This document shows positions 1-4,098 of a DNA stretch of 14,265 nt, one piece after another. Both the position numbers and the translations under genes were made by a program. How positions within the stretch are numbered: position 1 is the first letter of the stretch; every line of letters starts with the position of its first letter. This stretch comes from an uncultured Thermococci archaeon (lineage in GTDB: Archaea > CAYQAE01 > CAYVLA01), in contig CAZJVP010000006.1 in the NCBI GenBank assembly GCA_964549615.1, positions 1 to 14,265 of the forward strand, given 5' to 3'. Under the pieces are notes generated by a model that saw only the letters and a program-made list of their open reading frames with translations, did no database searches and was not told where the DNA came from.

Positions 1-374
1 TCGTCCGGATACGTCCTGTCCGAGATATTGTTGCTCTCGTTCACCTCGCCGATCTCCTCTTCGGCAGCCGATAGCTCCCCGTACCTGCCCACGTTCAGCC
101 TGATGCTTCCCCTGAAGAGCGAAGTGTAACCGTTCTTGAGCAAGTAGGTGGAGCCTTCCTCCACCTTCGAGATGTTCTCGTCCCAAAGGGCCATGTACAC
201 CGAGCCGGTGTCATCGCCGACGAGGATATCGGCCACAGTGTGATCCGATCCGTCCCTCGAGTGGACTTCCCTTACGTCGCCAGCCTTCAGAACCTTGAAA
301 AGGACGTTCACGCTCCTTGACCTCGGTCCGAGATCCGCTATCTTCACCGGCGCTGCTGCTCCTGCCTCCTCCAA
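1..374 (-). CDS. ssb: Single-stranded DNA-binding protein, single OB-fold (archaeal SSB/RPA type); 3' end runs off the window
   Basis: Not in the ORF track; translated by hand from TTG at 374: MEEAGAAAPVKIADLGPRSRSVNVLFKVLKAGDVREVHSRDGSDHTVADILVGDDTGSVYMALWDENISKVEEGSTYLLKNGYTSLFRGSIRLNVGRYGEL... The KIxDL...VNV, VGDDTG-x5-LWD and NGY...L-x-VGRYG patterns are typical of archaeal OB-fold SSB. SD GGAGGTGA lies just upstream. Confidence 0.9.
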   Translation of the reverse strand, partial: MEEAGAAAPVKIADLGPRSRSVNVLFKVLKAGDVREVHSRDGSDHTVADILVGDDTGSVYMALWDENISKVEEGSTYLLKNGYTSLFRGSIRLNVGRYGELSAAEEEIGEVNESNNISDRTYPD

Positions 375-378
375 CGCG

Positions 379-386
379 TCACCTCC
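379..386 (-). promoter_or_regulatory. Shine-Dalgarno site of ssb
   Basis: + strand TCACCTCC reads GGAGGTGA on the - strand, 4 nt before the TTG start. Confidence 0.8.
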
Positions 387-401
387 TACAACTTTGACTA
401 A

Positions 402-650
402 GGCTCGCCACCGAAAGTTACCGCAAGCCCCAAAGGTCGAGTTGGCAATGCTGGAGCATACAGGGACGCGCGATCAAACTTCACACCGCCTTGAGAGGGC
501 GGTGATGCGCTTGAGATACGCCCGTTATGCCCAGCAGACCAGGGGTTCTGCTCCGTCGAAGACCCATCAAACATACTTGCTTCCGCCTGTCCGCGCGGGA
601 AAAGCTTGACGGAACGTGCTCCGACTCAACCCCGACAAGCGAACCATTCC
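402..650 (-). ncRNA. Putative structured 5' leader or ncRNA upstream of ssb
   Basis: Hand-folded helices on the - strand: 632-621 with 445-434, 614-608 with 587-581, a long irregular hairpin at 535-450, and 429-423 with 408-402. Most contain G-U pairs that would be A-C mismatches on the + strand. Confidence 0.45.
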
Positions 651-671
651 TATAGCCTTGCTCCTGCCCGG

Positions 672-680
672 TTTAAAAAA
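672..680 (-). promoter_or_regulatory. TATA-box candidate for the ssb transcript; may double as the U-tract terminator of the upstream FN3 gene
   Basis: - strand TTTTTTAAA, preceded by GGAATAC, is the most AT-rich run in the 426-bp intergenic region. Confidence 0.5.
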
Positions 681-800
681 GTATTCCGTGCCTGCCGCTG
701 CACCGTTTACTCGCCACCTCTACCTTAGTGCGCCGAACTCAGCAAATCGCGACGACCGACCCGCATGGCTCACGGCAAGGTCTCCGGCGAACCGGCATGT

Positions 801-1508
801 TCATGCCCTCTTCCGCCGGAGCATCTTCAAGCCCATCCGGACCGATATGCCTACGATGATGACCAGCACAGCAATCCCTGCAAGCACCTTGATCCGCCAC
901 ATCAATACCGGAGCCCATGGGCGGATCGTGGCCTCCACGTAGGAGGGTTTGCTCTGGCCGGCATCGTTCTTGGCAAAAATCTTGAAGACGATCTCATCGC
1001 CCTTCGCGAAGCCGGCAAGTTCGGCCTTAACGATCCTTCTGCCGGTCTGGTTCACGTAGGTGGCTCCTGCATAGGTTGTCTCGCCCTTCCTTGCGTTCCA
1101 GATTGCGAAGCGAGTGATCCGCATGTATTCGGGGCCGTTTCTCCACCGAAGGATCACCGTGTAGTTGCCGTCGCCAGATTTCTTGATCCTCTCTACCCGG
1201 AACCCGGTAGGAGCTGCGGGAACGGCGAAGTTCGTCAGCCAAGTGATGTTGTTCTGCATCTTCGCCAGCTTGTGCTCCAGCTCGTCCACACGGTCGTAGA
1301 GCGTCGCGCTTCTCTTGAGGACGACGTCCAGCTGTCTCTTAGCTAGCGTGAAGTTCTCCTCCAGCGAAGCGAGCCTCTCCTCCAACGCAGCGATCCTCTG
1401 TTCAACCGAGAGGTTAGCGCTGCTCGCGTTTGCCTCAAGGCCCGTGCACGAGCCCAGAATCACGTGGATCGAGCAGAGTGCCAAAATCCAGATAAAGCGC
1501 CTTGACAT
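801..1508 (-). CDS. Membrane-anchored surface protein: signal peptide, coiled coil, fibronectin type III-like domain, C-terminal TM helix
   Basis: MSRRFIWILALCSIHVILGSC signal-like N-terminus. Heptad region VEQRIAALEERLASLEE...VDELEHKLAKMQNN. FN3 hallmarks PAAPTGFRV...VILRW...FKIFAKNDAGQSKPS. TM segment VLAGIAVLVIIVGISV followed by basic tail RRKRA. Confidence 0.8.
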   Translation of the reverse strand: MSRRFIWILALCSIHVILGSCTGLEANASSANLSVEQRIAALEERLASLEENFTLAKRQLDVVLKRSATLYDRVDELEHKLAKMQNNITWLTNFAVPAAPTGFRVERIKKSGDGNYTVILRWRNGPEYMRITRFAIWNARKGETTYAGATYVNQTGRRIVKAELAGFAKGDEIVFKIFAKNDAGQSKPSYVEATIRPWAPVLMWRIKVLAGIAVLVIIVGISVRMGLKMLRRKRA

Positions 1509-1965: not shown

Positions 1966-2004
1966 CCGCCGTCTCCGGTGCGCTTTCGGTGTTCATCTTT
2001 GACG

Positions 2005-4098
2005 ATGACCGAACCCGGAGACCGAGATCCGACTTGGACAACGGACGTGCCCTTCACCTACAACATCGACTACTCGCCGGACCACGTCGGCAGCCAATCC
2101 TACATCAAGATGATCGCCGAGGCCCCGCCGGTCCTTCTCCACGTTGGACACGACGTGCCGTTCAAGAGCATGTACGGTCCGGCCGATCAGTTTGACTGCT
2201 TTGGCCGGAGAATACTGAGCCCAAAGGAAGCACAGGAAAGAATCGATGTACTGAAGGACTATGTCGCCCAGCTTCACAAGGCTGGCGTTAGGCTCCTCAT
2301 ACCCTACGTCTGCTCCATGTTCATCTTCGGGGACGCCAAGAAGCGCACGGGCTTCTGGGAGTTCTATGACAACTGGGAGAAGTACAAGGAGTTCGGCTTC
2401 GGGTCCAAGCCCAAGCGTGACCCACTAACATGGTGCTACGACAAGCCGCGGCCCCTGAACGCCAAGGACTATGACGCTGGCTACGTTTATGAGCCGTGCA
2501 TGAACGATCCCGACTGGCGCAGGTTCCTCAGGGCCACGGTGGCACAGATCGCCAAGGTTGGATACGACGGAGTCTTTTCTGATGTGAACTCGACGCGGTG
2601 CTCCAAGGCCTGCTGCAGACAGCTATTCAGTGACTACCTCCAGTCGCGGTACACCTGGGACGAGATCAAGAGACTGTTCGGATTCAACTCGCCCAGGGAT
2701 GTGCGCATGGGACGCGAGGGAGAAGGGTTGCTCTGGGTGGAGACCGTGAGGTTCCGTGGGGAGAGGGCGGCAAACCTCTTCGCAGAACTCAGAAACGAGG
2801 GAAGGAAGTTCCGCGACGCGTTCTTCGTGTTGCCCAACCTAAGCCCCTTCCAGCACGTTGATGGGGTGTGGCGGCGGGTGGGCAACTCCCACGTATTCGC
2901 AAGTTGGGCCAGGGAGTGTCCTGTGATAATGTTCGAGGAGATGCACCAACCGGGACTACTCGCGGAGGGCGTCGTATCCAACTTCATCTTCCAGTACAAG
3001 TATGCCTTCGCCCACACGGCGAGGGCGGGGACCCTCCTGTACCACGCGCAGGATCCGTCCGGCGTTCACATCGGAATTGCCGAGGCAGCAGCTGGCGGAG
3101 GAGGCGCGCTGATTCAGGGAGGCTATGCTTCCCCAGAGGTGAGGCGAAAGTTCCGGACCTTCTTCCACCGACACCCCGAGCTATTCGCGGACATGCTTCC
3201 GTACTCCTTCGTCGGCCTGGTCTTCCTCTATGAGCAACTTGCATGGGGAACGAGGTCCCACCTAGAGAACACCCTCAGGATCGCAGAGGAATTCATGGCC
3301 AAGCACGTGCTCTTCGACCTCATCGTTGAGAGGAACCTGCGGTTGACCGACCTAACGCGCTACAGGGCCGTCGTCGCGTGTGACGTGGAGAACCTGTCGG
3401 ATGTACAAGCCAGTGCCTTGCTGGAGTATGCGAGGCAGGGGGGCACCCTCGTCTCCATCGGACAGCTTGGGAAGTTTGATGACAGAGGCGCGCAGAGACC
3501 CAAGTCCGTCCCAGACGAGATTCCACCCTCGGCCTGGAGAGAGGTCTGCCCCGGGGTACATCAGGCGGAATGCGGCAAGGGCAGATGCATCAGGTCGCCG
3601 GACCTGGGCCACCTCCTTGAGCCTGCGTACTTTGAGCTCTTCATGCACACTGAGGAGGAGGTCAACGACATCAACAAGGTTTTCGAGCTGATAGGGAAAG
3701 CCAGGAATCGCCCCCACCGAGATCGCAATAGGATGTTGGTCCCCGTGGTACGCGAGGCCGCCGGGGAGGTCACCATCTCCGATTGCGAGGAAACGCTGAG
3801 GTTCAACGCCTACACGCGACTGGATGACGACGTGGCGTCGCTGACCTTGCACGCCGTGAACTACAACCTCCCGATCCGGGCAAGAGGACAATCCGGTCCA
3901 GTCGTGCCGGCCAAGCACGTCAGAATCCGACTCCCGCTCCCGAGCGGGTGGAGGGCCCGAGAGGTCCGACTCTACAGGCCCCCGGATGATGAAGCCGTCG
4001 AAATTCCCTTCAGGCAGAGAGCGGGGATCATGTCTCTCGAGATCCCAAAGGCGGACATATATTCCCTGGTGCAGGTCCTCGCGAAGTCCAGCCCATAG
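2005..4098 (+). CDS. Uncharacterised glycoside hydrolase-like protein (TIM barrel, GH42-type trimerisation/class I GATase-like domain, C-terminal beta domain)
   Basis: PCMNDPDWRRFL...GYDGVFSD, Cys cluster CSKACC followed by F-x-x-YL...Y, and a middle domain LTRYRAVVACDVENLSD...LLEYARQGGTLVSIG. No signal peptide. ATG 2005 preferred over GTG 1978, but the start is uncertain. Confidence 0.7.
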   Translation: MTEPGDRDPTWTTDVPFTYNIDYSPDHVGSQSYIKMIAEAPPVLLHVGHDVPFKSMYGPADQFDCFGRRILSPKEAQERIDVLKDYVAQLHKAGVRLLIPYVCSMFIFGDAKKRTGFWEFYDNWEKYKEFGFGSKPKRDPLTWCYDKPRPLNAKDYDAGYVYEPCMNDPDWRRFLRATVAQIAKVGYDGVFSDVNSTRCSKACCRQLFSDYLQSRYTWDEIKRLFGFNSPRDVRMGREGEGLLWVETVRFRGERAANLFAELRNEGRKFRDAFFVLPNLSPFQHVDGVWRRVGNSHVFASWARECPVIMFEEMHQPGLLAEGVVSNFIFQYKYAFAHTARAGTLLYHAQDPSGVHIGIAEAAAGGGGALIQGGYASPEVRRKFRTFFHRHPELFADMLPYSFVGLVFLYEQLAWGTRSHLENTLRIAEEFMAKHVLFDLIVERNLRLTDLTRYRAVVACDVENLSDVQASALLEYARQGGTLVSIGQLGKFDDRGAQRPKSVPDEIPPSAWREVCPGVHQAECGKGRCIRSPDLGHLLEPAYFELFMHTEEEVNDINKVFELIGKARNRPHRDRNRMLVPVVREAAGEVTISDCEETLRFNAYTRLDDDVASLTLHAVNYNLPIRARGQSGPVVPAKHVRIRLPLPSGWRAREVRLYRPPDDEAVEIPFRQRAGIMSLEIPKADIYSLVQVLAKSSP

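Follow-up and report, generated by a model that had tools for sequence, protein, structure and literature searches.

A putative leader of the gene ssb, which codes for a single OB-fold SSB-like protein, was analyzed in the window, that is, the whole stretch of 14,265 bases, which are the first bases of one contig of an archaeal assembly of 3.2 Mb in 104 contigs (genome G000). The minus-strand segment from about 375 to 650 is best read, from its sequence, as an untranslated leader of about 270 nucleotides (nt) of the ssb mRNA, which starts from a promoter at 671-689. The leader and a conserved module at its 5′ end are real and match no catalogued RNA family in Rfam searches. The comparison with homologous loci demonstrates that the module is non-coding, single-copy and ssb-specific. 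The leader is predicted to be cis-acting, with the module as a post-transcriptional control element, a reading that is held with about even confidence. The features on which it is based are the following:

3-374, minus strand: ssb, single OB-fold SSB-like protein (Pfam Ssb-like_OB, E = 1.4e-13), truncated at its 3′ end by the contig end
372-374, minus strand: TTG start codon of ssb, read from the sequence
379-386, minus strand: Shine-Dalgarno (SD) sequence GGAGGUGA, 4 nt ahead of the TTG start, read from the sequence
402-429, minus strand: hairpin before the SD (pre-SD hairpin), GGCUUGC (429-423)/GCGAGCC (408-402), the best kept of the helices proposed in a first-pass annotation of the window
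409-533, minus strand: fast-evolving middle of the leader, including an 86-nt hairpin (450-535) of the first-pass annotation, judged from identity and the folds of relatives
534-648, minus strand: conserved 5′-terminal leader module (model R1), with conservation possibly extending to about 506
645-650, minus strand: predicted transcription start, placed by the distance of about 22-27 nt that is usual in archaea between the TATA box and the start
671-689, minus strand: promoter ACGGAATACTTTTTTAAAC with B recognition element and TATA box, the T/A box at 672-680

The runs containing the window are hot-spring metagenomes, and the host is an archaeon from hot springs, whose phylum is sampled with 5 species genomes in the GTDB-based collection. 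The family genomes comprise that of the window (G000), one of the same genus (G001) and those of the other two genera (G002 and G003). A metagenome scan with SSB peptide patterns added the loci L052, L053, L054, L055, L056 and L057. The upstream region of L053 is identical to that of L052, and L056 is nearly the same as G003. The SSB orthologues are 72-90% identical (L052 and L054 90%, L055 76% and L057 72% to the protein of the window), and the full-length ones carry an RGG-rich tail. Homologous leaders were found in five sequences, namely G000, L052, L054, G001 and L055, three of which are close to one another.

A TATA-like box at 672-680 had been noticed in the first-pass annotation; it is real and lies within a conserved promoter motif. 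The motif RGAATAC-TTTT(TT/A)WAA was found upstream of ssb in G000, L052, L054, G001, L055 and G003/L056, and a variant, TTTATATG, is located at the same place in L057 and G002. Within the family, 8 distinct loci have the motif, 110-300 nt ahead of the ssb start, and a search of the genome with up to 3 mismatches allowed gives a single occurrence. From the box to position 650 the sequence is free to vary, with 8 of 18 positions different in a relative found in the runs X3/X4. Conservation starts about 24 nt after the TATA box, and the heptamer GGUUCGC (645-639) is invariant in all five homologues. Sequence inspection between the promoter and the SD revealed neither a T run of at least 5 nor a second A/T box, and a terminator scan of 375-690 found no terminator, which argues for one transcript from about 648 into ssb. 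The leader, counted from the first base of the module to the start codon, measures 219-276 nt across the five homologues, and the promoter distance is kept as well.

The identity of the 5′ module between G000 and L052, L054, G001 and L055 amounts to 0.88, 0.90, 0.77 and 0.69, respectively, compared with 0.52, 0.47, 0.36 and 0.33 at the four-fold degenerate sites of ssb. For the final 37 nt, with the GCGAGCC strand, an A/U-rich spacer of 15 nt (387-401) and the SD, the values are 0.84, 0.84, 0.73 and 0.59 in the same order, and for the middle they are 0.65, 0.64, 0.55 and 0.43 in the best global alignment. Since the identity of the module and of the pre-SD segment exceeds that of the four-fold sites, the alignments establish purifying selection on both, but not on the middle. 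The SD word GGAGGTGA is present in all five homologues. A sixth relative, represented by contigs in the runs X3/X4, matches positions 506-695 and diverges on either side; each of its 4 listed differences within the module either affects an unpaired position or replaces a C-G pair by U-G.

The covariance model R1, which describes the module, has a single match each in G000 and G001, in both cases ahead of ssb. Among 94 ssb loci only L052, L054 and L055 match, and the rest are no better than E 0.28. A regulon with the module ahead of other genes was rejected on the basis of the single R1 copy and of short-word BLAST and motif scans of the 3.2-Mb genome, which gave chance-level matches only. The arrangement typical of riboswitches, with the same aptamer before several genes of a pathway, was not observed, as there is one copy per genome, upstream of ssb only.

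That the leader contains no convincing gene, as had been stated in the first-pass annotation, is borne out for its conserved part. Across the module, each of the six frames is closed in at least one of the four close sequences, the substitutions are distributed 15/13/16 over the codon phases without a phase bias, and an open reading frame (ORF) of 26 codons at the 5′ end of the module is broken in G001 and L055. A protein-coding gene or leader peptide was rejected on these grounds and on the non-genic G+C content at third codon positions (GC3) of a 58-codon ORF, which is treated below. Furthermore, the ORFs at 295-609 (plus strand), 398-574 (minus strand) and 616-942 (plus strand) have no Pfam match.

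A search of the whole window against Rfam 15 at gathering thresholds, which included the cspA thermoregulator, riboswitches, RNase P, the signal recognition particle RNA and small RNAs, returned 0 matches. With E up to 10, only two junk matches (E 2.6 and 3.4, 12 bits) were obtained in 300-820, and 11 related loci gave 0 matches with E up to 1. ARAGORN predicted no tRNA or tmRNA in the sequence. H/ACA, C/D-box and k-turn features were looked for by eye only, by which neither an ACA box following the rod predicted for the module nor conserved C/D boxes were seen. In the part of the literature that a full-text search brought up, no paper on an archaeal ssb leader was found. The suggestion of an undescribed leader holds for a long non-coding region between a conserved promoter and the SD, which is partly under purifying selection and has no Rfam match.

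The RNAalifold consensus on the module is a rod, which consists of four helices:

540-635, minus strand: predicted rod fold
635-628/547-540, minus strand: P2, GGGGUU/RRCCCY
625-619/561-555, minus strand: P3, GUCGRAG/CUUCGAC
613-602/578-575 plus 570-563, minus strand: P4, CCGUCARGC/GUUUGAYGG
598-595/586-583, minus strand: P5, CCGC/GCGG

In this fold 84.5% of 155 cells are paired, a proportion that 3 of 500 shuffles attain and that drops to 30-54% with slid partners; the structure was derived from the same sequences on which it was scored. P5 is paired in all five sequences with one C-G to U-A swap (L055), and a C-to-U change in the X3/X4 relative keeps a wobble pair. The first 13 nt of the leader are left single-stranded in the rod model.

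In the pre-SD hairpin, the 3′ strand GCGAGCC is invariant in four sequences and reads GCGAAUC in L055, and the 5′ strand varies (GGCUUGC, GGaCUCGC, GGUUCG..C) with the pairing retained. Judged by these models, the rod fold and the pre-SD hairpin appear to fit the relatives better than the large fold that had been proposed for the leader in the first-pass annotation, with weak covariation. In addition, the 5′-terminal heptamer GGUUCGC is complementary at 7 of 7 positions to GCGAGCC or GCGAAUC, located 26-29 nt before the start codon, in all five homologues, and in L055 this pairing reaches 10 base pairs. With two mutually exclusive partners, the GCGAGCC strand beside the SD would look like a switch. 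A duplex test of the 5′ end against the pre-SD segment in 8 leaders gave z values of +0.15 to -2.5, plus -6.97 for G002; it was designed post hoc with mononucleotide shuffles, is dominated by G002 and is not used as support.

Based on this, a leader of three parts is proposed, with a near-constant module (about 115-145 nt), a middle that is free to change (about 125 nt) and a conserved segment at the end (37 nt). Transcription would start at the predicted position and continue into ssb as one transcript, and the module, folded into the predicted rod, would set the amount of the OB-fold/RGG nucleic-acid-binding protein post-transcriptionally. In the most likely mode the module would serve as a recognition platform at the 5′ end for a protein, possibly SSB itself, like the cold box of cspA or the operator of gene 32. 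The SSB autoregulation or thermosensing suggested in the first-pass annotation is speculative. The state of the module would reach the ribosome-binding region through GCGAGCC, which may pair either locally with GGCUUGC or with GGUUCGC at the extreme 5′ end, and any regulatory effect would be exerted in this way.

Several observations weigh against a control element of this kind. All 4 runs containing the locus (window positions 300-900) are DNA, for which reason we infer the transcription start, the transcript ends and the co-transcription with ssb. The covariation in the rod is thin, with five sequences of which three are close: double changes occur in 5 of 31 pairs, but 67 of 500 shuffles have as many, the covariation term of RNAalifold is +1.8, which is a penalty, and P4 is broken in G001 (5 of 9 pairs, read from the alignment). 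A partner for the 5′ end near the SD is expected by chance with a frequency of 0.07-0.17 per sequence, and the idea was formed after seeing the data. R1 has no match in G002 and G003, which represent the other two genera, or in G004. The invariant runs of up to 25 nt in the module would be explained equally well by a sequence-specific recognition of the DNA or of the RNA.

Finally, the folding energy lends no support, neither for 375-680 nor for the five leaders nor for the module alone. With RNAfold, 375-680 has -114.9 kcal/mol on the ssb strand compared with -110.4 +/- 5.3 for shuffles (z = -0.86; 21 of 100 shuffles as good) and -91.3 kcal/mol on the opposite strand (z = -0.36; 32 of 100 as good). 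The leader of this genome trimmed to the region from the predicted start of transcription to the start codon has -110.0 kcal/mol (z = -1.97; 1 of 100 shuffles as good), and the trimmed leaders of L052, L054, G001 and L055 as a group have z = -0.43, -1.01, +1.85 and -1.06, the one of G001, from the same genus, folding worse than its own shuffles. The module alone has z values of -1.6 to +0.8 in the five sequences.

Among the alternatives, the module might be the gene of a separate small non-coding RNA of about 115-145 nt, which would be transcribed from the promoter at 671-689, whereas ssb would be reached by read-through or from an unrecognised promoter closer to the SD. The conservation block is indeed discrete, as it extends from the predicted transcription start to about 506-534 and is followed by unconserved sequence, and the module can fold as a self-contained rod. 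However, no oligo-T terminator follows the block, the only run of four Ts (CUUUUC) lies inside it and is absent in G001, and there is no A/T-rich box within 400-640 that could drive ssb. Moreover, the block is always found at the same place and in the same orientation before ssb and nowhere else, and it has no Rfam match, so that a separate RNA is considered unlikely.

Somewhat less likely still is a conservation of the block as DNA, in the form of a region downstream of the TATA box at which a regulator binds and represses or tunes the transcription of ssb. About 115 nt would be long for archaeal operator sites, and the changes in the helices are biased toward those which keep the pairing, including G-U, which is sensible only in the RNA of the ssb strand. 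On the other hand, GTCGR words at 636-621 and an inverted copy, CTTCGAC, at 561-555 are candidate sites, the invariant runs are longer than helices need, and the module is without a thermodynamic signal. A 16-mer like GTCGGGGTTGAGTCGG (2 mismatches), which lies 237 nt upstream of the ssb gene of the Thorarchaeota locus L035 and ahead of that lineage's own promoter, might also be counted in favour of a DNA site. It may be a chance match, because 9 comparable matches with 2 mismatches occur elsewhere in the 3.2-Mb genome, and the GTCGGGGTYGAGTCGG word common to the window and L035 was rejected as probably due to chance. The sequence at L035:1264-1279 reads GTCGGGGTCGAGTCGG in the same orientation as in the window and has 2 of 16 mismatches to the search word GTCGGGGTTGAGTCGA and 1 of 16 to the copy in the window itself.

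The region could also be a long untranslated region (UTR) without a function of its own, the helices of which are chance pairings in a G+C-rich sequence. Folding energies at the level of shuffles and a middle of 125 nt that is free to evolve are consistent with this. It is already an unlikely reading, as it is hard to square with a module identity of 0.69-0.90 next to 0.33-0.52 at the four-fold sites, and the promoter distance and leader length are kept.

In a further alternative, an upstream ORF (uORF) is translated, and its translation, not its peptide, couples to or controls the initiation at ssb:

398-574, minus strand: ORF of 58 codons, probably not a gene

The start of the uORF is found at leader position 72-75, with AUG in four homologues and UUG in L055, and a conserved GGCGG is located 8 nt upstream of it. 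The lengths in the five homologues are 58, 65, 58, 52 and 47 codons, and the uORF ends 4-26 nt ahead of the ssb start, in L052 and L055 within the UGA of the SD. Despite the kept start position and the end near or in the SD, the open runs themselves each arise in shuffles with a P of 0.08-0.21, and in no frame is the longest open run out of the ordinary (P 0.43-0.69). Seven genes of the window have a GC3 of 0.62-0.79, next to which the 0.43-0.57 of the uORF is non-genic. Past residue 15 the peptides show no relationship, and the frame with respect to GCGAGCC is a different one in G001. Nine unrelated ssb leaders, three from the family and six from Thorarchaeota, were examined for an ORF of 20 codons or more with its end just ahead of the ssb start, and G003 alone has one; the ORF in G002 overruns the ssb start, and L035 has an ORF of 25 codons. 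A controlling uORF is thus regarded as improbable.

The first-pass annotation had described the leader as a large multi-branch RNA structure. Every helix string it quoted is located at its minus-strand position, and the pairing in this genome was confirmed for the closing helix H1 (11 of 12), for H2 (7 of 7) and in full for the four helices of the 535-450 hairpin (H4) and for GGCUUGC/GCGAGCC (H5). The small hairpin GCAGAACC/GGUCUGC is present as well, whereas it overlaps the next helix by 2 nt (534-535). On the alignment of the five sequences the helices are paired as follows:

632-621/445-434, minus strand: H1, closing helix, 64.6% of cells paired
614-608/587-581, minus strand: H2, UUCCGUC/GGCGGAA, 82.4% of cells paired
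minus strand: H3, small hairpin, 71.4% of cells paired
535-450, minus strand: H4, four helices of the 86-nt hairpin, 53-61% of cells paired
429-423/408-402, minus strand: H5, GGCUUGC/GCGAGCC, 92.0% of cells paired

The complete model reaches 66.9% of paired cells compared with 40-47% when slid, a value which includes the near-perfect pairing of this genome. The closing helix is paired at only 6-7 of 12 positions in L052, L054 and G001. It is lost there because its 3′ strand changed and its 5′ strand, which belongs to the invariant module, did not. It also competes with the better kept P2 and P3. In the middle of L052 and L054 a long hairpin is formed from the same UCUGCU(G/C)GG with a 3′ partner on a different segment, and G001 and L055 have other folds. 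The middle of about 125 nt merely tends toward some hairpin and evolves freely. In the relatives the 5′ module and the pre-SD segment are kept, but the closing and inner helices of the large fold are not. The energy of this fold is at the level of shuffles, an outcome that the first-pass annotation had named beforehand as refuting it. The G-U pairs had been described as strand-specific, and in the better kept helices they do work on the ssb strand only. Although all helices are present in this genome, the trimmed leader has z = -1.97 and the paired cells exceed those of slid partners, the loss of the closing helix and of H4 in the relatives, the z values of -0.86 for 375-680 and +1.85 for G001 and the competition with P2/P3 make a single multi-branch structure as the functional unit, be it a riboswitch or a thermosensor, highly improbable. 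A hand-drawn fold of many helices in a G+C-rich sequence is not evidence by itself; what matters here is the conserved 5′ module.

Upstream of the leader, the following gene is located:

801-1508, minus strand, the same strand as ssb: gene of a protein of 235 amino acids with weak coiled-coil matches

The spacer between ssb and this co-directional gene is 426 nt long, and the order of the homologue of this gene, spacer and ssb holds in all loci except G002, in which an additional gene is inserted. In G001 (L004), about 330 additional bases at 869-1195, which are without a counterpart in the window, separate the upstream gene from the ssb promoter, and the spacer has a length of 623 nt compared with about 426-429 nt in the window. 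The gene of the 235-amino-acid protein (minus strand) is separated by a divergent spacer of 71 nt (1509-1579) from an acylphosphatase gene (1580-1855, Pfam E = 6.3e-28). This spacer contains only one TTAAATTA box, located at about 1540-1548, which could serve both directions. To judge from this arrangement, both genes would have very short leaders or none, as had been noted for the neighbouring genes in the first-pass annotation, and therefore the long leader of ssb stands out. Farther along, an ORF of 706 amino acids at 1978-4098 (plus strand) has a sub-threshold Pfam match to a beta-galactosidase trimerisation domain (E = 0.0066, 16.4 bits; cut-off 25.8) and may encode an uncharacterised glycoside-hydrolase-like protein.

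In the other genera of the family the ssb leaders are also long, with unrelated sequences. The leader of G003/L056 has about 250 nt (z = -0.88), and that of L057, measured from the TATA box, about 190 nt (z = -0.74). The leader of G002 (L006:1860-1975, minus strand of the locus) contains a near-perfect hairpin of 79 nt, AUUAUAUUAGGCUUG...GAGCCUAAUAUGAU, which spans from just after the predicted transcription start to 10 nt before the SD. Its minimum free energy is -44.6 kcal/mol (z = -5.07), and 0 of 200 shuffles are as good.

The ssb loci of Thorarchaeota, the SSB of which is 54-59% identical to that of the window, have a conserved leader of about 130 nt:

L038:1340-1470, Thorarchaeota leader
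L042:1340-1470, Thorarchaeota leader
L043:54-184, Thorarchaeota leader
L034:1331-1467, Thorarchaeota leader
L035:1356-1485, Thorarchaeota leader
L036:1331-1467, Thorarchaeota leader

The closing helix, formed by its 5′ end UGCAGGU and by ACCUGCA, which is located about 25 nt ahead of the start, varies with the pairing kept (UGCAGGU/ACUUGCA in L036), and a small UCGC/GCGA hairpin precedes the start. R1 has no match in 7 Thorarchaeota loci, and R2, the model of the 6 Thorarchaeota leaders, has none with E up to 10 in the window, L004, L005, L006, L052, L054, L055, L056 and L057. As in the window, the gene is of the same kind, a conserved non-coding leader lies between promoter and start codon, the 5′ end is paired in a helix with a segment located 25-30 nt ahead of the start, and no Rfam family is matched. 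In contrast, the two leaders are not detectably homologous, and theirs has about 130 nt compared with about 270 nt in the window, where the element is single-copy.

Taken with the unrelated leaders that precede this gene in Thorarchaeota and in the sister genera, the leader described here suggests that these archaea generally control the dosage of their SSB-like proteins at the level of the mRNA. A wider and more tentative reading, which is put forward as possible but doubtful, is that long mRNA leaders, either re-invented or diverged past recognition, control the small SSB-like proteins with OB fold and RGG tail in each of several archaeal phyla, with the leader of 270 nt described here, the 79-nt hairpin of the sister genus (G002) and the 130-nt leader of Thorarchaeota as the cases considered. 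Each of them would bring the 5′ end to the ribosome-binding region, and the module would be the binding site at which the protein, or else a signal of temperature or stress, acts to determine the protein's synthesis. To our knowledge, archaea have been little mapped for post-transcriptional control, and beyond some riboswitches and the k-turn leader of L7Ae only few cis-regulatory leaders have been described. Here, a core replication/repair or RNA-chaperone protein gene of a barely sampled hot-spring phylum is preceded by a long leader, part of which, the module, is clearly under purifying selection.

By analogy, the ssb leader would be cis-regulatory in the manner of the cspA and Thorarchaeota SSB leaders, while being homologous to neither. 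A further parallel is given by the bacterial stabilising stem-loops at the 5′ end of mRNAs, as in the ompA 5′ UTR, which share a conserved structure at the very 5′ end of the mRNA of an abundant protein. However, the first 13 nt are single-stranded here in the rod model, and the conserved part is far longer. The translational operator of gene 32 of phage T4 consists of a 5′ pseudoknot, which nucleates cooperative binding along an unstructured, A/U-rich region at the ribosome-binding site, and serves the autoregulation by this SSB. In both cases the product binds single-stranded nucleic acid, and a 5′ element is followed by an A/U-rich, probably unstructured stretch by the SD (387-401), but this stretch comprises only about 15 nt in the window, and there is no homology. 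The 5′ UTR of the E. coli cold-shock gene cspA has about 160 nt with a cold box at its 5′ end (Rfam cspA thermoregulator). The same arrangement of a long 5′ UTR before an OB-fold gene with a conserved box at the 5′ end was found here, with about 270 nt before the gene of a small nucleic-acid-binding protein, the most conserved part at the extreme 5′ end, where it occupies roughly the first 115 nt, and an SD that is separate from the conserved module. The two differ in that there is no match in sequence or structure, the host is an archaeon of hot springs and the fold is not unusually stable. Thermosensing of the cspA type works by two alternative folds, the balance of which is shifted by temperature and alters the access to the SD; the two possible partners of GCGAGCC are the only hint of this in the ssb leader. 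If the wider reading given above holds true, the ssb leader would be an archaeal counterpart of cspA or of gene 32 autoregulation.

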